In this document: positions 1,454-53,703 of the stretch, piece after piece | How positions within the stretch are numbered: position 1 is the stretch's first letter | Layout: every line of letters begins with the position of its first letter | Assembly: GCA_011682695.1 (NCBI GenBank) | Contig: JAACED010000012.1 | Coordinates: forward strand, 43,518 to 107,517 | Source: Gammaproteobacteria bacterium | GTDB taxonomy: Bacteria; Actinomycetota; Acidimicrobiia; Spongiisociales; UBA4744 | Direction of reading: 5' to 3' | DNA length: 64,000 nucleotides | The notes under the pieces: generated by a model | Seen by the model: the letters and a program-made list of their open reading frames with translations, nothing else | The model's database searches: none | What the model was told of the DNA's origin: nothing | Position numbers and translations under genes: made by a program

Positions 1454-2555
1454 GGACAAGGCCGGCGCGCGGTTTCGGAACGAACAGGGTCGTCTTCCGA
1501 GGAAAACGAAGCCGCTGCTCCGCTGCGTCGGAGACTGCTTCCTCCGGCACTGCAGCCATGAGCAGAACTGCACCATCGGGAGCTCCGGCGAGCTCCGCGA
1601 TCAAGCGCTCGGGATCCGGATGGAACACAGCATCTTCTTCCCCGACGCCGCACCGGGGATACAGCAGCTCGCGCGCTACGGCCGTGCTTGCGCTTCTCCA
1701 TGATGGTGGAAGAGCCTGAATCGGACCCGCCTTCGGAATCAGAAGCTTCGACTCTCCGGTGGTGACCATCGTGATGGAGCCGGGCACCGTCGGAGGCGAC
1801 GGTGGGGCAGTTTCCACGTCGAAGATGTCACCGATCTCCTCCACGCGAAGGATCGGAAAGAATCGGTGAATGGGATGTATCTGCAATCCACTGCCCTGGG
1901 CCGGAGCCACGAAGGCCATGATTGCGTCCCATCCACCCCGGCCTTCGTGGGAAGCCTGGTACTCGAGAGCCGCCGTGAACCGATGGTGCCCATCCGCGAT
2001 GGCGAGAGGATGCGTGTCAACGGCTTCGGCAATTGCCGGTACCTGCCGTTCCAGGTCATACAGCGCATGGCGGACGCCGTCGGCTTCGAACGCGAAACGA
2101 GGAGAGCCTTCCGGTTCGAGAAGAGCGGGAAGCCCAGGTGCGGGGGAGAGGGCAATGATCAGATCCAGGTTCGAGCGGGTTGCCCGCAGAAGCTCCAACC
2201 GGTCGACTCCCGTGTGTGCCATCGTCTCCTCGTGGCCGAGGATCCGCTTGCCGATCGGTTCGAGAGCCAGAGCACCGATCACACCACGCGCCTCTCGTTC
2301 GACGCCCTCATCCGTCCGGTAGCGCATCGTGTAGAGGTAGAAGCGCGGATCTGTGTCGATCTGCAGCGTTCCATCCCCGAGCCAGGCTTCGAGAAGGTCT
2401 GCAGATTCCTGATACGTCTTCGGGAGCAGGAGCCTCACCATGTTATGTGGCGAGGTGTCACGTAACGTGGCAGCATCGTCGATCATGTCGTATGGCGGGC
2501 TGGTGCAGGCAGCCACATTGGCCGTGAACGTGGTTCCTCGGAAAGGTGTAAACAT
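1440..2555 (-). CDS. DUF1015 family protein
   Basis: N-terminus MFTPFRG...VAACTSPPYDMIDD and the ADGHHR motif are typical of DUF1015. Start assigned to the internal ATG (codon 68 of track ORF 1440..2756). The upstream in-frame extension is low-complexity R/P/S-rich. Confidence 0.7.
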   Translation of the reverse strand: MFTPFRGTTFTANVAACTSPPYDMIDDAATLRDTSPHNMVRLLLPKTYQESADLLEAWLGDGTLQIDTDPRFYLYTMRYRTDEGVEREARGVIGALALEPIGKRILGHEETMAHTGVDRLELLRATRSNLDLIIALSPAPGLPALLEPEGSPRFAFEADGVRHALYDLERQVPAIAEAVDTHPLAIADGHHRFTAALEYQASHEGRGGWDAIMAFVAPAQGSGLQIHPIHRFFPILRVEEIGDIFDVETAPPSPPTVPGSITMVTTGESKLLIPKAGPIQALPPSWRSASTAVARELLYPRCGVGEEDAVFHPDPERLIAELAGAPDGAVLLMAAVPEEAVSDAAEQRLRFPRKTTLFVPKPRAGLVLRSF

Positions 2556-3369
2556 GGCGGGAGTTCTAGTCGGTGCAGGGCGATTCGGCAATGTCCTCTG
2601 CGATCTCAACGGTGTCCTCAACCGGGACACCGAAGCGATCCCCGGCGCGGGGGATGCTCTGCAACGTCTCGACGAAGCGGGATTCGCCATCGTCTTCGTC
2701 ACGAACAACTCGACGGGAACGTGTGCAGATGTCGCCAACGAGATCACCCGCCTCAACGGCTACGCGGCCTCACCGGACCAGGTCATCGGTTCCGCCCAAG
2801 CCGCCGCCGCACTTCTTGCACCGGATCGGCCGGCATCCTTGGTCCTCGGAGGGAAGGGAATCGTGTCAGCGTTGACCGAACGCGAAATCCCCATCGTCGA
2901 TGACCCTTCCGCCGCCGAAGCCGTGGTCGTGGGACTCGACGTCCACCTCAACTACCGGCGCCTCGACAGGGCGGCGTCTGCCATCCGTAGGGGAGCGCGA
3001 TTCATTGCCACCAACACGGACGCCACCTTTCCCGGACCAGAGGATCTCCACTGTGGCGCGGGTGCGATCGTCGCCGCGATCGCCACTGCATCCGGACGAA
3101 CGCCGACGGTCGCAGGCAAACCTCACTCTGCGATACGGACACTGGTGAAACAGCGGCTGATACCCGGTCCCGTGTGGGTAGTGGGGGATCGTCCCGAGAC
3201 CGATCTGGCCATGGCGAAGGCCGAACACTGGAACGCTGCTTTGGTCCTCACGGGCGTTCTCTCGGACCTGGACGAAGTTCCATCCGACCTGAAACCGGAT
3301 CTCGTCACCGCGTCTCTGGTCGAGTTCGCCGATATCGTGATACGCGGTCGGATCAGCGCAGGGCAATGA
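2554..3369 (+). CDS. HAD-superfamily subfamily IIA hydrolase (NagD/Rv1692-like sugar-phosphate phosphatase)
   Basis: MAGVLVGAGRFGNVLCDLNGVL... (DxDGVL-type motif I), FVTNNS (motif II), GKP (motif III), VGDRPETD (motif IV). Start chosen at the ATG whose CATG is shared with the divergent DUF1015 start. Confidence 0.7.
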   Translation: MAGVLVGAGRFGNVLCDLNGVLNRDTEAIPGAGDALQRLDEAGFAIVFVTNNSTGTCADVANEITRLNGYAASPDQVIGSAQAAAALLAPDRPASLVLGGKGIVSALTEREIPIVDDPSAAEAVVVGLDVHLNYRRLDRAASAIRRGARFIATNTDATFPGPEDLHCGAGAIVAAIATASGRTPTVAGKPHSAIRTLVKQRLIPGPVWVVGDRPETDLAMAKAEHWNAALVLTGVLSDLDEVPSDLKPDLVTASLVEFADIVIRGRISAGQ

Positions 3370-4081
3370 TCCGACGCCGGCGGACCCGTCTGAGCAGTGC
3401 TGGTCGCATGAGGGCCGCCACGGTAACCCCGAAGAGGAATCCGCCAACGTGTGCCTGCCACGCGACGCCCGTCGCTTCGACGAAGAACTGGCCGAGGAAC
3501 CAGAAAACCAGAAAGATCGAAGCTGGGAGCGCGATCGGAAGAAAGAAGAGGATCGGGAATACCGACACAACTCGCGCTCTGGGATAAAGAACGAGGTAGG
3601 CACCCATCACACCTGCGATTGCGCCAGAGGCGCCGATCAAAGGGGTAATCGCTCTCGGATTGGAGACGACGAATGTCGCTGTCGCGACAACTCCCGAGGC
3701 CAGATAGAAGAGCGGATATCCGAGCTTGCCGAAGGCATCTTCGACGTTATTGCCGAAAATCCACAGGACCCAGAGGTTGCCGATCAGATGCAAAAAGTTC
3801 GCATGCAGGAACATCGACACGAAGACGCTTCCCCACAGGTTCTTGTCTGGATAGAGGGGTGGAGGCTGAGGAGCAGCCGAACAGCCTGTGAGATCGCCCT
3901 GGTCGAGGGGCGAACCCGAAGAGAGTTCGCAAGGGATCGCGGCGTGCTGCACGTCGAACTCCAGAGCAGCCCGCGCACCGTGGGGCTGAAGAAAGAAGAA
4001 CACGAACGCACCCGCTGCAATGATCAGCCATGTGACAACAGGGCGGGTGATGCCTGGATTCGCGTCCCGGATGGGAATCAA
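3353..4081 (-). CDS. Rhomboid family intramembrane serine protease
   Basis: GASGAIAG (catalytic Ser) and AHVGGFLFG (catalytic His) motifs; multiple TM helices. Start set to TTG at 4081, preceded by GGAG with a 7-nt spacer. The track ORF extends to 4237 through a Ser-rich low-complexity stretch that overlaps a plus-strand small ORF. The start is uncertain (GTG at 4141 is also possible). Confidence 0.65.
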   Translation of the reverse strand: MIPIRDANPGITRPVVTWLIIAAGAFVFFFLQPHGARAALEFDVQHAAIPCELSSGSPLDQGDLTGCSAAPQPPPLYPDKNLWGSVFVSMFLHANFLHLIGNLWVLWIFGNNVEDAFGKLGYPLFYLASGVVATATFVVSNPRAITPLIGASGAIAGVMGAYLVLYPRARVVSVFPILFFLPIALPASIFLVFWFLGQFFVEATGVAWQAHVGGFLFGVTVAALMRPALLRRVRRRRIIALR

Positions 4082-4112
4082 ATGACTGCTCCTGTCGGAA
4101 TGGGATGTGATA

Positions 4113-4256
4113 ATGCCGACGATGGATGATACGCAAGTCACCGAAATGCTCGACGAACTCGCCGGTATGGATCCAGCCGACGCCGTGGAAGCGGCCGAAA
4201 GGCTGGCCGACTTGCTGGCCGATCGACTCGAAGACAAAGCGGAGGACTCGGCCTGA
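4113..4256 (+). CDS. Small acidic hypothetical protein (47 aa), possible Rv1693-like ORF immediately upstream of tlyA
   Basis: ATG..TGA ORF MPTMDDTQVTEMLDELAGMDPADAVEAAERLADLLADRLEDKAEDSA is below the ORF-track length cutoff. Its stop TGA overlaps the proposed CTG start of tlyA (CTGA). Weak SD. Position conserved relative to tlyA in mycobacteria (from memory, not verified). Confidence 0.3.
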   Translation: MPTMDDTQVTEMLDELAGMDPADAVEAAERLADLLADRLEDKAEDSA

Positions 4257-5032
4257 CCAGACGCAGGCTCGACATCGAGCTCGTTCGCAGAGGGATGGCT
4301 GCAAGTCGCAGCGAAGCCCAGGCTGCCATCGAATCGGGAACGGTGACGGTTGGGGGAATGCCAACCCCAAAGCCGGCAACCCTGGTGGACGACGCAACGT
4401 CCTTGCGTCTCGTTGGGCCGTCGTCACGATTCGTCTCACGAGGCGGTGAGAAGCTCGCCGGCGCTCTCGACACGTTCGATGTGGCCGTTGCCGGAAGACA
4501 CTGCCTCGATGCCGGTGCATCGACAGGCGGCTTCAGCGACTGCCTGCTCCAGCACGGAGCATCCCCGGTCGTCGCCTTGGACGTCGGGTACGGACAGTTG
4601 GCGTGGGGGATCCGAAACGACCCGCGGGTGCGGGTCGTTGAAAGAACAAACCTGCGTTACGTGGACCCTGCCGACATTCATGCTCCCTTCGAGGTGATCG
4701 TGGCCGACCTGTCATTCATCTCCCTCTGCACGGTCGGTGCAGCGCTGGCCGCTTGTAGTTTCGAGGACACCGACTTCGTCCTCTTGGTGAAACCGCAGTT
4801 CGAAGCCGGAAAGGGCAAGGTTGGCAAGGGCGGGATCGTGCGCGACCCTAAGGTGCATAGGGAAGTGCTCGACAAGGTGATCGGCTGTCTCGAACAGTCG
4901 GGCATCGGTGCAAAGCAGGTGATTCGCTCTCCCATCCGGGGAGCCGGCGGGAACAGGGAGTTCTTCCTCTGGGCGAGACAGGGACGTGTCACGGTGGATG
5001 ACGAGATGATTGCAAAGGTGGTGCACGCGTGA
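4253..5032 (+). CDS. tlyA: TlyA family rRNA 2'-O-methyltransferase (hemolysin A homologue)
   Basis: Strong similarity to TlyA (S4-like RRRLDIELVRRG N-terminus; GASTGGF SAM motif; VADLSFISL; LVKPQFE). Homology extends 14 codons upstream of the first ATG (4295) with no ATG/GTG/TTG in frame back to the stop at 4127. A CTG at 4253 sits 6 nt after a perfect GGAGGA and overlaps the upstream TGA. Conservative alternative: 4295..5032. Confidence 0.8.
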   Translation: MTRRRLDIELVRRGMAASRSEAQAAIESGTVTVGGMPTPKPATLVDDATSLRLVGPSSRFVSRGGEKLAGALDTFDVAVAGRHCLDAGASTGGFSDCLLQHGASPVVALDVGYGQLAWGIRNDPRVRVVERTNLRYVDPADIHAPFEVIVADLSFISLCTVGAALAACSFEDTDFVLLVKPQFEAGKGKVGKGGIVRDPKVHREVLDKVIGCLEQSGIGAKQVIRSPIRGAGGNREFFLWARQGRVTVDDEMIAKVVHA

Positions 5033-5832
5033 GGCTGGCAATGGTCGTACACGAGAGGCGTCCCCAGGCTGGAACCGTGGCAGAGCGCTTCCGGGAAGGC
5101 TGCCTGGAACGTGGCATCGAGGTCGTAGACCAGGAAGCCGAGAACGTTGACGCGGTCATCGCGATCGGCGGCGACGGGACCGTTCTGCGAGCTGCCAGGA
5201 TCGCGCTGGAGTCAGGGGCCGCGCTCCTCGGCGTCAACGTTGGACGGAAAGGCTTTCTGGCGGATGTGGAACCGGCCCGACTGCCTGAAGCACTGGACGT
5301 GTTGGCATCGGGGATATGGCGCGAATCGGCTCGCATGACGATCCAGGCCCGCATGAACGGAGGAGAAACGGCCGTCGGCATCAACGATGTCGTGGTCGAA
5401 AAGACCGGAGGGCACAGCATTATCTCGATCGAGGTTCGGGTTGATGGAGAACGGTTCATCGACTATCACGCGGACGGCCTCGTGTTCGCGACCCCGACCG
5501 GTTCTACCGCCTACAACCTCTCTGCCGGTGGACCACTTATGGACCCCGAAGTCGAGGCGTTGATCATCTCGCCCGTCGCTCCCCACTCGTTGTTCTCCAA
5601 GTCGGTCATTCTGCATCCAGATGCCGAGATCCAATGCACCGTGGTCGCCGACAGACCTGCCGGCGTGAGTGTGGATGGACGAGATCTCGGAACCGCCCAT
5701 AGCGGTGACAAGATCCTCATCGAACGTGGATCCCAGCAGGTTCGCTTCATCGATGTTTCGGGCACTTCGTTTCCTCGGCGCGTGAAGGACAAGTTCCATC
5801 TCAATGAGGACCGAAGGCTCGTGGGAGGCTGA
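5029..5832 (+). CDS. nadK: NAD+ kinase
   Basis: GGDGT motif (AIGGDGTVLRAA), NE/D short motif, C-terminal ATP-NAD kinase fold motifs DGLVFATPTGSTAYNLSAGGP. GTG at 5029 overlaps the tlyA stop (GTGA); an ATG at 5041 is an alternative. Confidence 0.85.
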   Translation: MRLAMVVHERRPQAGTVAERFREGCLERGIEVVDQEAENVDAVIAIGGDGTVLRAARIALESGAALLGVNVGRKGFLADVEPARLPEALDVLASGIWRESARMTIQARMNGGETAVGINDVVVEKTGGHSIISIEVRVDGERFIDYHADGLVFATPTGSTAYNLSAGGPLMDPEVEALIISPVAPHSLFSKSVILHPDAEIQCTVVADRPAGVSVDGRDLGTAHSGDKILIERGSQQVRFIDVSGTSFPRRVKDKFHLNEDRRLVGG

Positions 5833-7425
5833 ATGCTCGATGAGTTGAAGGTCGAGAATCTTGGCATCCTCGACGAGGTCAGCATCGAGCCTGGTCCGGG
5901 ACTGGTGGTCGTCAGCGGCGAAACCGGCGCTGGAAAGACCATGCTCCTTGGAGCGTTGCGCCTCTTGATGGGTGGGCGCGTACCCACCGACATGATCGGC
6001 CCGCGCGCAAAGGACGCCGTGGTCGAGGGCAGGTTCGTGATCGGTCAAGAGGAAACGGTGCTTGCGCGGCGTGTCGCAAATGGACGAAGCCGAGCCTATC
6101 TCGACGGGCATATGGTGCCGGCACGCGTGCTCGAAGAACGGACGCAGTCACTCATCGAGATCATCGGTCAGCACGATCGCCTGAAGCTTGCCCGGCCCGG
6201 TGCGATGCGCAATCTCGTCGATACTCGCCTGAGATCACGTCCCGAACTCGAGTCCTACCGGGACGCATGGGAAACAGCGAAGCGCCTCGAAGCCGACCTG
6301 GAGGCACTTGGAGGTGACCGGCGCGCCCTGGAGCGCGAACGCGACCTCCTCTTGTACCAGCACGATGACATCATCTCTGCCGGATTCCAGGCCGGCGATG
6401 ACGAACGGCTGCGTCAAACCGCCACGCGGCTTCGCAATGCCGGCGAACTGACCGAGCGCCTCTCGAGGGTGCGCGCAGCACTCGAAGACACGATCACGGC
6501 CGCCGGATCGGCGATCGACGAACTGAGAGCCGTGGCCGGCCTCGACCCATCGACGACTCCACTGCTCACCGAATCCGACGAGGTGGCCGTCCGCGCAGGC
6601 GAATTGTTCACCCAGGTGCGCCAGATCGCTGAAACAATCGAACATGATCCTGCCGCGCTCGAAGTGCTCGAACAGCGCATTGCGCGCCTCGCCGATCTGC
6701 GGCGCAAGTACGGTGCCACCCTCGATGACGTGCTCAGTTTCGGAGCGCAAGTGGGGGAGAGACTCGAACAATTGGATCGTCTCTTGAGTCGAGCCGATGT
6801 GATTGGAGACGACTTGGAGGAAGCGAAGAGCCGACTGGCCGCGGCGGGAACGGCCCTGCGGCTCGCTCGACAGGAGGCGGCGCAGAACATCGAAGACGAG
6901 GCGGCAGGGCACCTTCGCGAACTGGGGTTCTCCAACGCCTCGCTTCAGGTAGTCGTGGAACCGGCAGAGGCCGGAGCAAACGGGGCCGACACCATCCGTG
7001 TCCTCTTTGCATCGGATAGCCGTCTCGACCCCGGACCCATCGATCGTGTCGCATCGGGAGGGGAACTGAGCCGAATCGTTCTGGCCCTTCGTCTGGCTGC
7101 GGACGTCGGGCATGTTCCCATCGTCGCCTTCGATGAGATCGACGCAGGCGTGGGTGGGGAGACCGCGCTTGCCCTCGGACGAAAACTGGCCAAGCTCGCG
7201 GTCAACCGCCAGGTGCTTTGTGTCACACATCTTCCGCAGGTCGCCGCCTTCGCGGAGCGTCACTTCGTTGTCACCAGGGAAGGGACCCGGGCACGTGTCG
7301 AGAGGGTGGAGGGAGAAGACCGGTTGCGCGAGTTGTCGAGGATGTTGGCGGGACTCCCAGAATCCAAGCAGGGTCAACGGCACGCCGAGGAGCTGATCGC
7401 CGCCGCGCAGAGATATGACGGCTGA
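5833..7425 (+). CDS. recN: DNA repair protein RecN
   Basis: N-terminal Walker A GETGAGKT, long coiled-coil, C-terminal SGGE signature (VASGGELSRIVLAL) and Walker B. ATG 1 nt after the nadK stop. Confidence 0.9.
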   Translation: MLDELKVENLGILDEVSIEPGPGLVVVSGETGAGKTMLLGALRLLMGGRVPTDMIGPRAKDAVVEGRFVIGQEETVLARRVANGRSRAYLDGHMVPARVLEERTQSLIEIIGQHDRLKLARPGAMRNLVDTRLRSRPELESYRDAWETAKRLEADLEALGGDRRALERERDLLLYQHDDIISAGFQAGDDERLRQTATRLRNAGELTERLSRVRAALEDTITAAGSAIDELRAVAGLDPSTTPLLTESDEVAVRAGELFTQVRQIAETIEHDPAALEVLEQRIARLADLRRKYGATLDDVLSFGAQVGERLEQLDRLLSRADVIGDDLEEAKSRLAAAGTALRLARQEAAQNIEDEAAGHLRELGFSNASLQVVVEPAEAGANGADTIRVLFASDSRLDPGPIDRVASGGELSRIVLALRLAADVGHVPIVAFDEIDAGVGGETALALGRKLAKLAVNRQVLCVTHLPQVAAFAERHFVVTREGTRARVERVEGEDRLRELSRMLAGLPESKQGQRHAEELIAAAQRYDG

Positions 7426-13889: not shown

Positions 13890-14448
13890 GACGACAGCGG
13901 TCTCGGTCCTGGAAGCGATCCTGTTCGTTGCCGAGGAGCCCGTGCCTATCGCGGAGTTGGCCGAGGTATTGGAGATGAGCACCGAACGTGTGCAATCTGA
14001 GCTCGAGAAACTCGCTACCGAACTGGATGACAGGGGATCAGGTCTGATCGTGCGCACCGTCGGAGGCGGTTGGCGCCTATATGCCAGGAGCGGCGTGCGA
14101 GCCTACCTGGACCGCTATGCAACCACGGCGACCGCGACCCGCCTCTCTCCCGCTGCGCTCGAAGTTCTTTCGATCGTCGCCTACAAACAGCCCGTATCAC
14201 GCGGACAGATCGCAGAGATTCGTGGTGTCGACTCCGGGTCGGCGGTTCGCACGCTCGAACGGCGAGGCCTGATCGAAGAACTCGAGCGCCTCTCCGTGCC
14301 CGGCAACCCGGCCGTGTACGGCACATCAGCCCTCTTCCTCGAGAAACTTGGCATCGGCTCACTCAACGATCTTCCCCCGCTCGCCGATCACGTCCCGCCT
14401 TCGCGGGTCGTCGAATCGCTCGAGGAAACCTTTCGTACGGACCTGTGA
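13876..14448 (+). CDS. scpB: Segregation and condensation protein B
   Basis: VLEAILFVAEEPVPIAELAEVL... two winged-helix ScpB repeats. GTG start overlapping the scpA 3' end. Confidence 0.8.
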   Translation: MNGSETTAVSVLEAILFVAEEPVPIAELAEVLEMSTERVQSELEKLATELDDRGSGLIVRTVGGGWRLYARSGVRAYLDRYATTATATRLSPAALEVLSIVAYKQPVSRGQIAEIRGVDSGSAVRTLERRGLIEELERLSVPGNPAVYGTSALFLEKLGIGSLNDLPPLADHVPPSRVVESLEETFRTDL

Positions 14449-15161
14449 ACGAGCGCCTCCAGAAACTCATCGCTCACTCAGGGTTCACCTCGCGCCGTGG
14501 TGCGGAGGAACTCATCAAACAAGGGAGAGTTTCGGTCGACGGTGCTCCCGCTCATCTGGGACAGAAGATCGACCCTGAGCACGCATCCGTCATGATCGAT
14601 GGAGTTCCACTCCCCGTGGCACCAGGCCTCGTCTACTACCTGCTGAACAAGCCGCCCGGAGTCGTCAGTACGGTACGCGACCCGCAGGGCCGCCGCACCG
14701 TTGTCGATATCGTCGGCAGCGAAACGAGGTTGTATCCGGTGGGACGGCTGGATGTGGAATCCGAGGGGCTACTCATCCTCACCAACGATGGAGATCTGGC
14801 TCACCTGCTGATGCACCCGAAGTTCGAGGTTGCCAAGACGTACATGGTGCTCGTCGATGCGAACCCGACCGCCCGTCAACTCCGCATCCTTCGAGAAGGT
14901 GTCGATCTGGAGGACGGGTCTGCGGCCGCGCTCTCGGCGCGGGTGATCGATCGTTCGAAGGGACAAGCTCTCATCGAGATCGTGATGGGGGAAGGACGCA
15001 AGCGTGAGGTGCGTCGGATGTGCGCCGATGTCGGCCTGCCCGTCTTGAGGCTCATTCGGACAGCCATAGGGCCGCTGCGAGATCGTACGCTTCGACCCGG
15101 GTCGTTCCGGCCATTGACCCTCGATGAAGTGCGAAGCCTCTACGCGGCAGCAGCCCCATGA
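14445..15161 (+). CDS. rluB: RsuA/RluB family rRNA pseudouridine synthase
   Basis: N-terminal S4 domain (ERLQKLIAHSGFTSRRGAEELIKQGRVSVDG), catalytic GRLDVESEGLLILTNDG. GTG overlaps the scpB stop (GTGA). Confidence 0.85.
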   Translation: MNERLQKLIAHSGFTSRRGAEELIKQGRVSVDGAPAHLGQKIDPEHASVMIDGVPLPVAPGLVYYLLNKPPGVVSTVRDPQGRRTVVDIVGSETRLYPVGRLDVESEGLLILTNDGDLAHLLMHPKFEVAKTYMVLVDANPTARQLRILREGVDLEDGSAAALSARVIDRSKGQALIEIVMGEGRKREVRRMCADVGLPVLRLIRTAIGPLRDRTLRPGSFRPLTLDEVRSLYAAAAP

Positions 15162-16441
15162 GACGCCGTATCACACCGACCACAGCCCGGGGAGAGATGA
15201 CCGTGCCGGGGTCTCGAAGCATCACGAACCGGGCCCTGGTGGCGGCCGCTCTGGCCGACGGAGTGAGTTCCCTTCGCGGGGTCCCAGTCTGCGACGACAC
15301 GCAAGCCATGATCGACGGTTTGCGCAGTCTCGGTGTGAGCATCCGCCGGCATGACGACCAGCTGTTGGTCACCGGCAGGGGCGGGAGAATCGGCAGGCCC
15401 GGAGCGGTCGTCAATGCGTTGGCTTCCGGCACGACCGCACGATTCCTGACGGCGGTCGCCTGTCTCGGTGAGCAGAAGGCCGTCGTGAACGGTGTGAAGC
15501 GGCTGCAGGAACGGCCTCTCGGGCCTCTCGTCGATGCGCTTCGCAAGATGGGCGCCCAGATTGAAGGTGAACACCTGCCCCTCCTTGTCGGAGGAGGCAG
15601 CCTCGTGGCCGGCAGCGTCGAGGTCGATGCCTCGGCTTCGAGCCAGTTCGTCTCGGCACTGGCCTTGATCGGACCCGTGATCGAGGGCGGTCTATCGATT
15701 CGGTGGGGTGAACTCGTGTCGAGACCTTTCGTCGAGATGACCGTGGAGGTCATGGCGACCTTCGGCGTGACCGTCGAGCTGTCCGATCGTGGTCTCACCG
15801 TCTCGGACCGAGCCACCTATGGGGCGGCAGAGATGTCGATTCCTCCCGACGCGGCGTCTGCCGTATACCCCGCGCTGGCCGCGGCCATCACCAGGGGCAG
15901 AGTCGTGATCAGGGGATTGCAGCGAGCCCCTTCCCAGGCAGACTTGCGAGTGTTCGACATGTTCCAGGAGATGGGTTGCCGTGTCGAGTGGAGCAGGACG
16001 GGTGTCCGCGTAGACGGTCCCGAACGCCTACGCGCGGTGGACGCCGACATGGGTAGTGCACCGGACGGAGCTCTCGCCGTGGCGATCGCAGCAGCGTTTG
16101 CCGACGGAACCTCGAGGATTCGCGGTCTGGATACGCTCGCAGCCAAGGAGAGCGACCGTACTGCCGGACTCGCCCAAGGGCTGACGGCGATGGGGGCCAC
16201 GGTCGAGGTCGAGGCCGCCGGTCTCTCCATCACTGCCGGCGATCCTCGTGAAGCGACCATCGATCCACATGCAGATCATCGCATGGCCATGGTGTTCTCT
16301 GTCGCCGGGCTCGGCAGGAAGGGGATCCGCGTTGAGGACAGCGACTGTGTGGGCAAGACGTGGCCCGGCTTCTATGAGGACATGAATCGGATCTGTGGTT
16401 CGAGCTGGGCACGCCCAGACCCCCGGGAATCTGCCGAGTGA
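15158..16441 (+). CDS. aroA: 3-phosphoshikimate 1-carboxyvinyltransferase (EPSP synthase)
   Basis: VPGSRSITNRALVAAALADG, LGEQKAVVNG, DASASSQFVSAL, ADHRMAMV motifs. ATG at 15158 overlaps the rluB stop (ATGA). An internal ATG at 15197 (MTVPGS...) is an alternative start. Confidence 0.9.
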   Translation: MRRRITPTTARGEMTVPGSRSITNRALVAAALADGVSSLRGVPVCDDTQAMIDGLRSLGVSIRRHDDQLLVTGRGGRIGRPGAVVNALASGTTARFLTAVACLGEQKAVVNGVKRLQERPLGPLVDALRKMGAQIEGEHLPLLVGGGSLVAGSVEVDASASSQFVSALALIGPVIEGGLSIRWGELVSRPFVEMTVEVMATFGVTVELSDRGLTVSDRATYGAAEMSIPPDAASAVYPALAAAITRGRVVIRGLQRAPSQADLRVFDMFQEMGCRVEWSRTGVRVDGPERLRAVDADMGSAPDGALAVAIAAAFADGTSRIRGLDTLAAKESDRTAGLAQGLTAMGATVEVEAAGLSITAGDPREATIDPHADHRMAMVFSVAGLGRKGIRVEDSDCVGKTWPGFYEDMNRICGSSWARPDPRESAE

Positions 16442-50961: not shown

Positions 50962-51349
50962 GTCGAAGCCGAAGACCTGATCTGCGGTCTCCATGGCTGC
51001 GGACGGCTGTTTACGGCGGGAGTGAACGCCCGCGCTGCTTCAGAGCAACTCTGCAGAATCGCCCCACGAGTCGAGGACGGGGGAGCGCATCAAGACGCTC
51101 ACTGGACCGGAAACGAACCCTGCGTGTGTCTCAGACACGCGCGCCGGCTACAAACGGTCTCAACGGCTCTCATGGCCCAATCGCAGCCGCAGAGCGCAAC
51201 AATCCACGCCTTCCCGACTCGACGAGGCACCCTCGGAAACCGCACTGGCCACGGGAACAGGCCGCCACCGACCACGCATCCGAGCGCGTTCGCCGGGAAG
51301 GTGCACCACGCCGTGATCAGGAGTTGATCCGGTGCGGTAAGCTCGAATC

Positions 51350-52111
51350 ATGAGGGTGCGTCTACCTGCCGTCGCCGGTACCTTCTATCCGCAGGACCCC
51401 GTCCAGCTTCGCGGCATGATCGAAGGGTTCCTTGCCTCGGCGAAGGTCGACATCACCCGCCACCCGAAAGCGATCATTACTCCTCATGCCGGGTACATCT
51501 ACTCGGGTCCTGTTGCCGCCATGGCATACGCGACCCTCAACCGGGACATCGTTCACAGAGTCGTCGTGATTGGACCGTCCCACTTCGTCTGGCTCGAAGG
51601 CCTGGCCCTCCCCGGTGTGGACAGTTTCCGAACTCCACTTGGGGACATCCCGCTGGTCGATCCTCTCCCGGTGCAGCTTCCCGTCATCCCTTCCGCACAC
51701 GCCAGGGAGCACTCCATCGAGGTCCAGCTGCCCTTCCTCCAGGTCGTCCTCGACGAGTTCGACCTGATTCCACTGGTCGTTGGAGACGCTGAGCCGGCAC
51801 TGGTCGCCGACACACTCGAAGCACTCCAGGGAGGACCGGAAACGTTGATTGTCGTCAGTTCCGATCTGTCCCACTATCTCGGTTATGAAGACGCCCGACG
51901 CGTGGATTCGATAACGGCATCCCGGATCGTAAAGGGGCAAGGGAATGCCCTCGCGCGACATTCCGCCTGTGGGCTTCGCGGGATTCAAGGTGTCTTGCAG
52001 TTCGCCGAACGGCACCAACTCTCCGTACGCCTTCTCGATCTTCGCAACTCGGGAGACACCGCCGGCGACAAGGATCAGGTCGTTGGCTACGGAGCGTTCG
52101 CGATCGGTTGA
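51350..52111 (+). CDS. MEMO1-family protein (AmmeMemoRadiSam system protein B type)
   Basis: RLPAVAGTFYPQDP, PHAGYIYSGPVAA, DLSHY motifs. Confidence 0.8.
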   Translation: MRVRLPAVAGTFYPQDPVQLRGMIEGFLASAKVDITRHPKAIITPHAGYIYSGPVAAMAYATLNRDIVHRVVVIGPSHFVWLEGLALPGVDSFRTPLGDIPLVDPLPVQLPVIPSAHAREHSIEVQLPFLQVVLDEFDLIPLVVGDAEPALVADTLEALQGGPETLIVVSSDLSHYLGYEDARRVDSITASRIVKGQGNALARHSACGLRGIQGVLQFAERHQLSVRLLDLRNSGDTAGDKDQVVGYGAFAIG

Positions 52112-52194
52112 CGACCTCAGCGGGAAGGACGCTGCGTGACGTTCGTACAGGGAGGGCAACAACAGACTCGTCGACCCCCATTAGGCTGCTGTGC

Positions 52195-53703
52195 GTGAAC
52201 GTAGTCGTCATCGGAGCGGGCCTCGGAGGGCTGAGCGCCGCTGCCCACCTGGCACGAGCAGGCCTCGGTGTGACCGTGCTCGAGCACCATTCCGTCCCTG
52301 GAGGCTACGCCCACGAATTCAAGCGGGATGACTTCCGCTTCGAGGTTGCCCTGCACGCCCTGGACGGCGCCGGTCCGGGAGGTTGGCTGTATCCCATCCT
52401 GGAGGAACTCGGAATCGATCTTCCGATGACGAGACTCGACCCTCTCTACCAGGCACACTATCCAGACATCCACATCACGGTACCGGCCGATCTGGCCGAG
52501 TACCAGGCGCAGCTCAGGTCTCTGTTCCCCGGCGAGCGTGAGGGAATCGATAGTCTGGTCGAGGCACTCAGACGGGTCTCCCACGACGTCGCCCGCTACA
52601 CGCTCGACCGTCAGCATGGGGAGCGGCCGGCTCCCTTCGAGATGCTCGAACGCTATCCGGCCATGGCACGTGCCTTCTCCCAAACGTGGTCTGAGCTCCT
52701 CGAAGGCCATATCCGTGACGCACGGCTCACGACCATCTTCTCTACCCTGTGGGGGTATCTCGGTCTGCCGCCGAGCCGGGTGAGTGCCGGACTGTTTGCC
52801 CTCGCGTGGAACAGCTATCACGTCGGCGGAGGGTATTACCCGGTCGGCGGCAGTCAGGCGCTCAGTCGCGCCTTCGAAGATGTGATCACCAGACACGCGG
52901 GGGAGATCCTCTACCGCCAGACGGTGAACGGAATCGTCGTGCGAGACGGTACCGCCGTTGCCGTGACCACAGAGCGCGGGCTCACGGTGGACGCGGATGT
53001 CGTCATCTCGAACGCCAGTCCCGTCGATACGATGCGTTTCCTGGGCACGGATGTGCTTCCGGACGACTACGTCCAGGACCGACGCGCCGATGTGCCATCG
53101 TTGTCCACACTCGTCCTGTACCTGGGGCTCGACCGCGACATCCGTGCCGAGGGGTGGAACGCCCACGAGGCCTTCCTCTCGGAGACGTTCGACACCGACG
53201 CGGACTACGCCGCCGCGATGTCCGGGGATTTCTCAAAGGCATCCATGGTGATTGCGGACTACACGCACACCGATCCCGGCTGTGCGCCGGCAGGCAAGAG
53301 TGTCGTGGCGATGCTCACGTTGGCACCGTGGGAATATGCGGACACCTGGGGTACCGGTGGAGATCTGGTTGGATACCGACGGAACCCTCGGTACCGAGCA
53401 TTGAAGCGCGCAGCAGCCGACATCCTGCTCGCGCGAGCCGAACGCCTCATCCCCGGCCTGCAGGACTCCATCGAGGTAATGGAGATAGCGACGCCGCTGA
53501 CCAACCATCGCTACGGTCTGGCGACCCGAGGCTCCATCTACGGCCGTGAGCAGACGGTTGACAACCTGCTGGTACGCATTTCCCCGAAGACGCCGATCCC
53601 CAATGTGTTCCTGACCGGAGCCTGGATCAGTGGGGGAGGGATGAGCACGGCGATCGCTTCAGGGAGAACCGCAGCAGAGATCGTGGCGTCCCGGCTCCGG
53701 TGA
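52195..53703 (+). CDS. NAD(P)/FAD-dependent oxidoreductase (phytoene-desaturase/CrtI-like amine-oxidase fold)
   Basis: Dinucleotide-binding VVVIGAGLGGLSAA…LE motif at the proposed N-terminus (GTG 52195). The track ORF begins at the TTG at 52108 (TTGA overlap with the Memo gene), giving a 29-aa low-complexity extension. Start uncertain. Confidence 0.7.
   Translation: MNVVVIGAGLGGLSAAAHLARAGLGVTVLEHHSVPGGYAHEFKRDDFRFEVALHALDGAGPGGWLYPILEELGIDLPMTRLDPLYQAHYPDIHITVPADLAEYQAQLRSLFPGEREGIDSLVEALRRVSHDVARYTLDRQHGERPAPFEMLERYPAMARAFSQTWSELLEGHIRDARLTTIFSTLWGYLGLPPSRVSAGLFALAWNSYHVGGGYYPVGGSQALSRAFEDVITRHAGEILYRQTVNGIVVRDGTAVAVTTERGLTVDADVVISNASPVDTMRFLGTDVLPDDYVQDRRADVPSLSTLVLYLGLDRDIRAEGWNAHEAFLSETFDTDADYAAAMSGDFSKASMVIADYTHTDPGCAPAGKSVVAMLTLAPWEYADTWGTGGDLVGYRRNPRYRALKRAAADILLARAERLIPGLQDSIEVMEIATPLTNHRYGLATRGSIYGREQTVDNLLVRISPKTPIPNVFLTGAWISGGGMSTAIASGRTAAEIVASRLR

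Follow-up and report, generated by a model that had tools for sequence, protein, structure and literature searches.

A rare CTG codon overlapping the stop of a tiny upstream gene is the most likely start of tlyA, an arrangement conserved across many Acidimicrobiia

The tlyA gene of an uncultured member of the Acidimicrobiia raises the question of where its translation begins. It lies in a tightly packed operon (mini-ORF-tlyA-nadK-recN) within the window, the whole stretch of 64,000 nucleotides analysed here (contig JAACED010000012.1, assembly GCA_011682695.1), and public gene callers start it at an internal ATG. The initial annotation had proposed instead that tlyA is initiated at a CTG codon standing behind the Shine-Dalgarno-like sequence GGAGGA and overlapping the TGA of a small acidic ORF. 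These positions were reproduced (4241-4246, 4253-4255 and 4254-4256), the spacer between GGAGGA and CTG being CTCGGC (6 nt). Between the stop at 4127-4129 and ATG 4295 the tlyA frame is uninterrupted and contains no ATG, GTG or TTG, as had been stated. The features of the locus are collected in Table 1.

Table 1. Positions of the features described at the tlyA locus, numbered within the window
Feature	Position	Strand	Details
Rhomboid protease gene, 242 aa	3353..4081	-	TTG start 4081-4079; AGGAG 4093-4089; Pfam Rhomboid match
Candidate promoter -10 element, TGTGATAAT	4106..4114	+	Core GATAAT 4109-4114; mini-ORF ATG 7 nt downstream
Mini-ORF, 44 aa (MDDTQVTEMLDELAGMDPADAVEAAERLADLLADRLEDKAEDSA)	4122..4256	+	Probably on a leaderless mRNA; alternative ATG 4113
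Shine-Dalgarno-like GGAGGA	4241..4246	+	Inside the mini-ORF (3' end), 6 nt ahead of the CTG
CTGA	4253..4256	+	Proposed tlyA CTG start (4253-4255) overlapping the mini-ORF TGA stop (4254-4256)
tlyA as proposed, 259 aa	4253..5032	+	S4 N-terminal domain and FtsJ-type 2'-O-methyltransferase domain
14 N-terminal codons, (M/L)TRRRLDIELVRRG	4253..4294	+	Absent from the public 245-aa annotation
First in-frame ATG	4295..4297	+	Start in public gene calls (P0001, 245 aa)
NAD kinase gene	5029..5832	+	GTG 5029 forms GTGA with the tlyA stop; alternative start ATG 5041
recN	5833..7425	+	ATG directly after the nadK stop

Type II TlyA enzymes are 16S/23S rRNA (cytidine-2'-O)-methyltransferases with C1920 of 23S rRNA and C1409 of 16S rRNA as targets. 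The product encoded here is predicted to be a TlyA rRNA 2'-O-methyltransferase with S4 and FtsJ domains. The Pfam S4 profile was matched by residues 4-45 of the CTG-started protein (E=1.5e-9) and the FtsJ profile by residues 60-242 (E=5e-40), with the SAM motif (GxSxG) present as LDAGASTGGFS. The S4 match begins at profile position 1 with residue 4, which bears out the earlier claim that TlyA homology starts 14 codons before ATG 4295. Mycobacterium tuberculosis (Mtb) TlyA (PDB 7S0S) aligned to residues 3-243 (E=3e-75, about 50% identity over the aligned region), R5, D7 and R19 being matched with Mtb R6, D8 and R20. The two proteins have in common the S4 and FtsJ-type domains, the N-terminal arginine residues and the GASTGGF SAM motif, and they differ in the non-canonical start proposed here (PDB 7S0S; PMC9168844). 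By this alignment, a full S4 domain with the Arg6, Asp8 and Arg20 equivalents is obtained only if translation begins at CTG 4253. The 14 codons missing from the public record encode the equivalents of Mtb Arg4, Arg6, Asp8 and Arg14; the R6A substitution in Mtb TlyA abolishes 50S methylation and R14W is a clinical capreomycin-resistance mutation (PMC9168844). The annotated 245-aa product would thus be defective, because residues essential in Mtb fall within the missing codons.

The pattern of substitutions among close relatives was consistent with translation of this segment. Only five columns vary within the 14 codons, four at third positions and one at the first position of an I/V codon, so that the variable codons in the tlyA frame comprise four synonymous-only and one conservative change. 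Upstream of the CTG, the same frame has one synonymous-only and 22 amino-acid-changing variable codons. Judged from these counts, the coding signature of the tlyA frame switches at the CTG. On this comparative evidence, translation must start upstream of ATG 4295, since the evolution of the 14 codons is that of tlyA coding sequence and some of their residues are essential in Mtb. The public annotation, which has translation start at ATG 4295 to give a 245-aa TlyA with a curtailed S4 domain and takes the upstream similarity for a remnant, is therefore very unlikely to be correct, even though this ATG is the sole canonical start in the frame and all public gene calls in the clade adopt it or an internal codon of a similar kind. 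In addition to the purifying selection on the upstream codons and the essential residues that they specify, the Met at 4295 is not conserved, the codon encoding Leu or Ile in most relatives, and no Shine-Dalgarno sequence precedes the CGCAGAGGG ATG, the best candidate being a marginal AGAGGG with zero spacing. Another near-cognate codon within the 14, such as the in-frame ATC 4274, would be the true start only in an extremely improbable case. ATC is occasionally used as a start codon in bacteria, but relatives carry GTC, GCC, CTA, CAG or ATG at this position, no Shine-Dalgarno sequence stands at a suitable distance, and the Arg4, Arg6 and Asp8 equivalents would still be lost.

The CTG was next considered in relation to the starts of homologous genes. 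It had been placed exactly where homologues have their Met, and this was confirmed in the 120 closest TlyA protein clusters: 39 of 79 full-length calls start at this very codon, with the sequence M-x-R-R-R-L-D. The R-L-D motif was missing from 40 of the 120. TlyA is shortened in the records of this clade because gene callers allow only ATG, GTG and TTG. The shortened records lack the Mtb Arg6 equivalent, and TlyA function or capreomycin susceptibility would be wrongly predicted from them by automated means.

A CTG exactly four codons ahead of the conserved R-L-D motif was found in 17 distinct sequences (the window and loci L001, L004, L005, L166, L169, L171, L172, L175, L006, L088, L087, L009, L007, L086, L052 and L158), which are phylogenetically related and do not represent 17 independent events. 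Close relatives were obtained through individual protein look-ups; the genome and metagenome scans gave mostly distant TlyA genes among the matches listed. CTGA is formed with the stop of the upstream gene in 14 of the 17 (the window and 13 other loci), and it is invariant in the alignment of close relatives (A1). The upstream stop ends 1 nt ahead of the CTG in one sequence, and in two (L007 and L086), where it is not the TGA of CTGA, its place is 16 nt downstream of the CTG. No ATG, GTG or TTG is present nearby upstream in frame in 16 of the 17; L086 has a GTG three codons further up. Purine-rich equivalents of the Shine-Dalgarno sequence stand 3-10 nt ahead of the CTG in the other loci (GGAGGAG, GAGGAG, GGGGAG, AGGGA, GGAG and AAGGGGAG). 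Six codons (GCC, ATC, GTC, CTC, CAC and ACC), all ending in C, occur as the final sense codon of the mini-ORF; the C of the CTG is thus kept although the overlapping mini-ORF codon changes. As to whether relatives have an ATG at this codon, some do carry a canonical start there: L012 has ATGA, and the proteins P0037 and P0038 begin with MTRRRLD and VTRRRLD, respectively. In the sequences compared, the CTG is the only conserved near-cognate codon of the 14-codon stretch, relatives having ATG or GTG in its place. The same data dispose of a sequencing or assembly error that made CTG from ATG or GTG, a concern raised in the initial annotation. Although the window comes from a metagenome-assembled genome of an uncultured organism, the identical base is carried by 16 other sequences, all of them assembled independently (NCBI, ENA, JGI and Logan), which refutes such an error and leaves it a negligible probability.

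Taken by itself, the motif GGAGGA-N6-CTGA is not significant, because its single match in the window compares with at least one match in 24 of 100 shuffled sequences. The weight of the CTG motif is in its place relative to the TlyA homology and in its conservation. In a crude search for genes over the 64-kb window, where GC3 separates the frames poorly at 62.6% GC, no other gene without a canonical start was found, and in the same weak scan CTG 4253 was the sole CTGA that pairs a Shine-Dalgarno sequence with the absence of a canonical start. A second CTG-start candidate (14478-15170, reverse strand) was an artefact, being the antisense strand of a pseudouridine-synthase gene. The window contains no initiator tRNA gene, and the only tRNA gene found there was that for tRNA-Pro.

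The small upstream ORF had been described as an acidic ORF of 47 aa starting at 4113. Its acidic character and its end at the overlapping TGA were confirmed, but the start is more probably ATG 4122, which gives 44 aa. The three codons between the two ATGs show amino acid changes among close relatives, an ATG at the position equivalent to 4113 is missing in several distant homologues, and the N-termini of the family are all MD[DT]T or ME[DV]T. Among close relatives, synonymous-only variable codons number 11 in the mini-ORF's own frame, versus 1-3 in the other two frames, and by this measure the mini-ORF is conserved as a protein. The word-indexed search with the mini-ORF returned five matches. 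An exhaustive profile search returned 21 cluster representatives of small proteins (42-82 aa) that have the motif DPADA...A..LA..L and an acidic tail; it gave no link to a named family, and no Pfam match was found for the mini-ORF. The AlphaFold2 model was a two-helix hairpin (pLDDT 86), for which Foldseek found no significant match in the PDB (best E = 3). The mini-ORF defines an unannotated family of about 45 aa that is genetically tied to tlyA. Since this family is conserved and has both the DPADA motif and a predicted helical hairpin, the mini-ORF may have a function of its own.

The mini-ORF ATG is invariant in 16 loci and lacks a Shine-Dalgarno sequence. In all 16 loci examined, GATAAT or CATAAT stands 6-7 nt ahead of it amid diverging flanking bases. 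The window has one match to GATAAT-N7-ATGGA, against none in 100 shuffled sequences; a scan for the sigma-70 consensus, for which a -35 element is needed as well, was negative. The conserved GATAAT 7 nt ahead of the mini-ORF ATG suggests a leaderless mRNA, and the operon transcript probably begins in this way at the mini-ORF. On the opposite strand, the start of the rhomboid gene had been left between TTG 4081 and GTG 4141, the longer version overlapping the mini-ORF in antisense. TTG 4081 is the most likely start: the AGGAG 7 nt upstream and the TTG itself are both invariant in A1, and relatives are called at 242 aa. The antisense stretch 4082-4141 has one synonymous-only versus eight amino-acid-changing variable codons, and the rhomboid coding signature ends at 4081. 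In the absence of a coding signature over 4082-4141 and with the start at TTG 4081, the rhomboid gene does not overlap the mini-ORF.

We consider it likely, given the arrangement and its conservation, that tlyA is translated from CUG 4253 by termination-reinitiation, giving a 259-aa product with a complete S4 domain. The mRNA would begin at or next to the mini-ORF AUG 4122, driven by GATAAT 4109-4114, and ribosomes would translate the mini-ORF and terminate at UGA 4254-4256. Reinitiation would then take place at the overlapping CUG, where GGAGGA 6 nt upstream would hold the small subunit in place, and the CUG would be read by initiator tRNA as Met, in the formylated form. Because the CUG is weak, tlyA would be expressed at a low level and would depend mostly on the mini-ORF being translated. 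Coupling of this kind had been suggested from the stop/start overlap. It is favoured because all the near-cognate tlyA starts found (17 CTG and one ACG) lie -17 to +3 nt from an upstream stop, and in three loci (L052, L158 and L115) the near-cognate start adjoins the stop of an unrelated K/A-rich upstream gene. The uncoupled tlyA lineages start with ATG or GTG. In L173, for example, the mini-ORF and tlyA are 33 nt apart and tlyA starts with ATG.

Alternatively, the strong Shine-Dalgarno sequence could allow independent initiation without coupling. In such a case the CUG would be used through ordinary entry of free 30S subunits, and the overlap would reflect compact packing with no dependence on mini-ORF translation. 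The ideal 6-nt spacing of GGAGGA agrees with this, Shine-Dalgarno motifs are common ahead of overlapping starts in general (PMC6728339), and RNA folding around the Shine-Dalgarno sequence and the CTG gave z = -0.31 (4215-4300) and z = -1.36 (4122-4330), indicating no inhibitory structure that would need an upstream ribosome. The same folding values led us to reject an unfolding model in which a hairpin masks the Shine-Dalgarno sequence and the CTG. Independent entry is nevertheless rather unlikely in our estimation, as it does not account for the restriction of near-cognate starts to the vicinity of an upstream stop, even with a different upstream gene, or for the ATG of the uncoupled L173. 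Stand-alone CUG is also essentially inactive in E. coli reporters, where it gave no detectable expression (bioRxiv 10.64898/2026.09.08.748864), and the mini-ORF would be an obvious ribosome entry point if the mRNA is leaderless. CUG initiation complexes are moreover unstable (PMC11497404). In view of both observations, the output from the CUG start could be very low.

A programmed -1 frameshift near the end of the mini-ORF, fusing it to TlyA with the CTG read as Leu, was rejected as exceedingly improbable. The tlyA frame is indeed -1 relative to the mini-ORF, and a Shine-Dalgarno-like GGAGGA precedes the junction, as is the case at dnaX-type frameshift sites. However, a slippery heptamer (X XXY YYZ) is absent in the window and in relatives, and none of the six codons found before the stop can re-pair after a -1 shift. 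Frames and spacings also differ between lineages: the relative frame is different in L007 and L086, the separated genes of L173 have stops in all frames between them, and L052 and L158 have an unrelated gene upstream. The ATG or GTG present at the same codon in relatives likewise places the TlyA N-terminus there.

A more elaborate version of the reinitiation model, which we regard as quite improbable, involves 70S ribosomes. Ribosomes would enter only via the leaderless mini-ORF, remain unsplit once they have terminated and reinitiate on the CUG, evading the start-codon proofreading that IF3 exerts on free 30S subunits. The two targets of TlyA, C1920 in H69 and C1409 in h44, lie at bridge B2a, a site that governs subunit association (PMC5778110; PMC12805891). 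How efficiently 70S ribosomes reinitiate at the CUG would then depend on the methylation by TlyA itself, making the CUG a methylation sensor in a tlyA feedback. Within this scheme, the conserved acidic mini-protein could be a partner or an inhibitor of the basic S4 domain. With its CUG kept across lineages down to 44% pairwise TlyA identity, and only beside an adjacent upstream stop, the locus offers a natural test case that could show if reinitiating ribosomes accept start codons rejected by free 30S subunits. It thereby bears on the 30S versus 70S models of translational coupling.

Judged from its layout, the CUG case is a variation on known translational coupling. The NTGA overlap is the most frequent geometry of coupling and works through termination-reinitiation (Huber et al. 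2019 PMC6728339; PMC12548453). The locus shares with such pairs the four-base stop/start overlap (-4 nt), a Shine-Dalgarno sequence within the upstream gene's end as well as the co-directional operon genes, and a further overlap (GTGA) is present downstream at the tlyA/nadK junction, where relatives are called at the equivalent of ATG 5041. In contrast to the described cases, which use ATG, GTG or TTG, N is C here, and this near-cognate codon is conserved across a clade and present only with an adjacent upstream stop. Neither PMC6728339 nor PMC12548453 mentions CTGA or CUG. The literature search found no paper on a tlyA CTG start, and the combination of 'CTG start codon' with Actinobacteria brought up only an unrelated phage-defence study. 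As recounted in PMC12548453, leaderless short ORFs of mycobacteria supply the downstream gene to which they are coupled with ribosomes (Shell et al. 2015). They resemble the present case in the short, apparently leaderless upstream ORF, the -4 nt coupling and the actinobacterial genome; the mini-ORF here differs in being a conserved protein family, and the downstream start in being non-canonical.

Weak non-canonical starts also limit or regulate expression in E. coli, namely the AUU codons of infC (IF3 autoregulation) and pcnB. The likeness consists in a conserved near-cognate start and a product that acts on the translation machinery and of which small amounts suffice. The codon here is instead CUG and is tied to an upstream stop, and feedback on it by TlyA or by IF3 would be hypothetical. 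The gene order is common to Mtb and the present operon (HAD phosphatase - small ORF - tlyA - nadK - recN). By position, the mini-ORF has its counterpart in the small gene upstream of Mtb tlyA (Rv1693), a possible homologue.

The tlyA reading frame is open from a stop codon at 4127-4129 and, as the initial annotation had claimed, contains no ATG, GTG or TTG ahead of ATG 4295. The + strand around the start site reads ...GCGGAGGACTCGGCCTGACCAGACGCAGGCTCGACATCGAGCTCGTTCGCAGAGGGATGGCT..., which bears out the placement of the proposed CTG after a GGAGGA motif and its overlap with the stop of the upstream acidic mini-ORF as CTGA (see the table). The CTG-started protein, with the N-terminus (M/L)TRRRLDIELVRRGMAASRSE, matches Pfam S4 at residues 4-45, from profile position 1, and Pfam FtsJ at residues 60-242, so that TlyA homology does extend upstream of ATG 4295. 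The GGAGGA-N6-CTGA pattern occurs once in the window and at least once in 24 of 100 shuffles, and is therefore not significant by itself as a single-sequence pattern. Position 4253 is the sole CTGA in the 64-kb window with both a Shine-Dalgarno-like (SD) motif and no canonical start. A crude and weak gene scan of these 64 kb found no other gene lacking a canonical start, and on that scan the CTG start looks tlyA-specific, not genome-wide.

Features of the window and CTG loci of its relatives
Feature	Position	Strand	Remark
HAD phosphatase gene	2440-3369	+	convergent with rhomboid gene; 3' ends overlap by 17 nt (3353-3369)
Rhomboid gene	3353-4081	-	
GGAGGA	4241-4246	+	SD-like, before CTG
CTG	4253-4255	+	proposed tlyA start codon
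TGA	4254-4256	+	stop of acidic ORF in another frame; overlaps CTG
GTGA	14445-14448		between scpB-like and pseudouridine-synthase genes; canonical start
TTGA	52108-52111		between ORFs 51341-52111 and 52108-53703; canonical start
L166			CTG locus; contig with mini-ORF homologue P0122
L169			CTG locus; P0005, 68% identity
L171			CTG locus; P0031
L172			CTG locus; P0050
L174/L175			CTG locus; P0041
L006, L088, L087			CTG loci; 57% identity
L009			CTG locus; 50-52% identity
L007			CTG locus; 55-60% identity
L086			CTG locus; additional GTG 3 codons further upstream
L052, L158			CTG loci; upstream gene is an unrelated K/A-rich protein

Codon changes were compared between the window and the loci of three close relatives (L001, L004 and L005). 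Five columns vary in the 14 codons between CTG and ATG 4295; in the tlyA frame these are four third codon positions and one I/V first position, and in either alternative frame all changes would alter amino acids. Among the variable codons directly before the CTG, 1 is synonymous-only and 22 change the amino acid in the tlyA frame, against 11 and 17 in the mini-ORF frame. By this codon signature, the 14 codons are judged to be translated as part of tlyA. The alignment with M. tuberculosis TlyA (PDB 7S0S) begins at query residue 3. In that protein 50S methylation requires both Arg6 and Arg20, Asp8 is conserved almost universally, Arg4 aids 30S recognition, and R14W is among the clinical mutations to capreomycin resistance (PMC9168844). 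ATG 4295 comes after all of the window equivalents R5, D7, R4 and R13, so a product initiated there would be without them. Since the tlyA-frame 14 codons are also conserved in relatives, where the initial annotation had considered that the upstream residues might be missing, a start at ATG 4295 has no appreciable probability, and the same holds for one at ATC 4274.

CTGACC was invariant at the proposed tlyA start site in the DNA of the close relatives (L001/L003, L004, L005); these loci lack a canonical start and have a called mini-ORF before the site. Further loci were counted if a CTG stood exactly 4 codons ahead of the R of the conserved R-L-D motif, and TlyA pairwise identity among the CTG loci goes down to 44%. 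Start codons in relatives, a check proposed initially, proved to be ATG (L012, as ATGA; P0037, MTRRRLD) or GTG (P0038, VTRRRLD) at this same codon in those with canonical starts; of the 79 full-length calls in the 120 closest clusters, 39 begin at it. The same CTG in relatives' loci excludes a conversion of ATG or GTG by sequencing error, which has no appreciable probability; on these alignments, the CTG is conserved and not an error. In an Acidimicrobiales tlyA (L053, ~1986-2012), eight open codons, none of them ATG, GTG or TTG, precede R-L-D, and the start candidates are an ATC or the TTG coding the L of the motif.

In public databases the window's protein (P0001) has 245 aa and starts at ATG 4295, as do its three closest relatives (84-86% identity), and R-L-D is absent from 40 of the 120 closest TlyA clusters as called. 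Among eight truncated calls with DNA read, seven had CTG and in one (P0113/L170) the gene caller had skipped an ordinary GTG. In this clade the TlyA of public gene calls is cut short (window 4295-5032; P0001-P0005 and others), with misplaced starts at internal ATG, GTG or TTG and N-termini such as MAASR.., MELVRRG.., MVRRG.. and MRRSLF... The nadK start is ambiguous, as GTG 5029 overlaps the tlyA stop (GTGA) and the calls in relatives correspond to ATG 5041. The NCBI label of the window's TlyA is 'Gammaproteobacteria bacterium'; the close relatives are without exception MAGs of Acidimicrobiia or Actinomycetota, and HAD - rhomboid - tlyA - nadK - recN - pyrG is an actinobacterial gene order, so the source MAG appears to be taxonomically mislabelled.

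The CTG and the upstream stop form CTGA in 14 sequences. The longer mini-ORF of L007 and L086 stops 16 nt past the CTG, and in L158 the upstream stop ends 1 nt ahead of it; L052 and L158 keep the same geometry despite their unrelated upstream gene. Just before its stop the mini-ORF has GCC, ATC, GTC, CTC, CAC or ACC: the amino acid varies, while the third base, always the C with which CTG begins, is constant. L115 has ACG 2 nt past a TAG stop (~740-760), at a codon that is GTG in its relative L143 (~1000-1016), possibly another type of near-cognate start for tlyA. In L173, 33 nt separate the mini-ORF from tlyA, which starts with ATG; GATAAC 7 nt upstream of this ATG and the lack of an SD (1467-1503, 262-aa TlyA group) suggest that tlyA may have its own leaderless promoter. 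A lysine/alanine-rich protein replaces the mini-ORF in L039, L083, L090, L115, L143, L170, L052 and L158, from other Acidimicrobiia lineages; it is histone-like, with AKKAAPAKK repeats, and has a weak Pfam Phasin match in L170.

GATAAT or CATAAT stands 6-7 nt before the mini-ORF ATG in 16 loci with diverging flanks, and GATAAT-N7-ATGGA was found in 0 of 100 shuffles of the window. No SD precedes this ATG, and a sigma promoter scan requiring a -35 element was negative. Leaderless mRNA is common in Actinomycetota, and the conserved GATAAT fits a putative -10 element of such an mRNA. The best-supported account is a leaderless start followed by termination and CUG reinitiation: the mRNA would start at the mini-ORF AUG, ribosomes would terminate at the UGA after its 44 codons, and reinitiation would follow on the overlapping CUG, with GGAGGA holding the ribosome in place. 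Coupled genes most often overlap as NTGA, a geometry for which termination-reinitiation has been demonstrated (PMC6728339; PMC12548453); neither paper mentions CTGA or CUG. Independent SD-directed initiation at the CUG also has appreciable probability, given the GGAGGA, and is the only rival reading that does; a frameshift fusion has none to speak of. Against it, a stand-alone CUG is very poor in E. coli, being undetectable in a reporter versus 41% (GUG) and 21% (UUG) of AUG (bioRxiv 10.64898/2026.09.08.748864), and CUG initiation complexes are unstable (PMC11497404), which makes the conservation of CUG only beside stop codons meaningful. No RNA structure masking the start site was found, leaving the unfolding model of coupling without support here. 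Translational coupling and weak start codons are known, whereas a clade-wide conserved tlyA CUG dependent on stop-codon proximity is distinctive, and our literature search found no description of one. Without TlyA, which modifies bridge B2a, subunit association is disturbed (PMC5778110; PMC12805891), so unsplit 70S ribosomes reinitiating at the CUG could conceivably feed back on tlyA expression, a speculative and improbable idea.

The mini-ORF was confirmed as an acidic ORF ending at the TGA, but not its 47-aa start at ATG 4113: codons between 4113 and 4122 change amino acids among close relatives and the upstream ATG is missing from several distant homologues, which makes ATG 4122 the likely start. 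Its homologues all begin with MD[DT]T or ME[DV]T and share L..L...DP[AV][DE]...A..LA..L, with an acidic tail after it. An exhaustive profile search gave only 21 cluster representatives, of 42-82 aa except P0126 (518 aa). The mini-ORF had no Pfam match, and its AlphaFold2 model, a two-helix hairpin (pLDDT 86), had no significant match in the PDB. P0126 matched the profile in eight separate stretches (E=1e-13) and may either repeat the motif in tandem or be an artefact of low complexity. In the other actinobacterial loci L036, L135 and L153 a canonical tlyA start directly follows a longer small ORF (..L..L..LD.EDVH....V...VH..L..L..), which may be distantly related to the mini-ORF and to mycobacterial Rv1693.

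Of the alternative rhomboid starts, TTG 4081 and GTG 4141, TTG 4081 is made the most likely by the 242-aa calls in relatives, an invariant AGGAG 7 nt upstream (4093-4089, - strand) and the codon signature, with both variable codons downstream of 4081 synonymous (2/2) and 1 synonymous-only versus 8 amino-acid-changing codons in 4082-4141. The longer version overlapping the mini-ORF did not stand; its 294-aa ORF comes from the antisense strand of the acidic mini-ORF, which reads as an open S/A-rich frame, and the predicted rhomboid and mini-ORF genes are without overlap.
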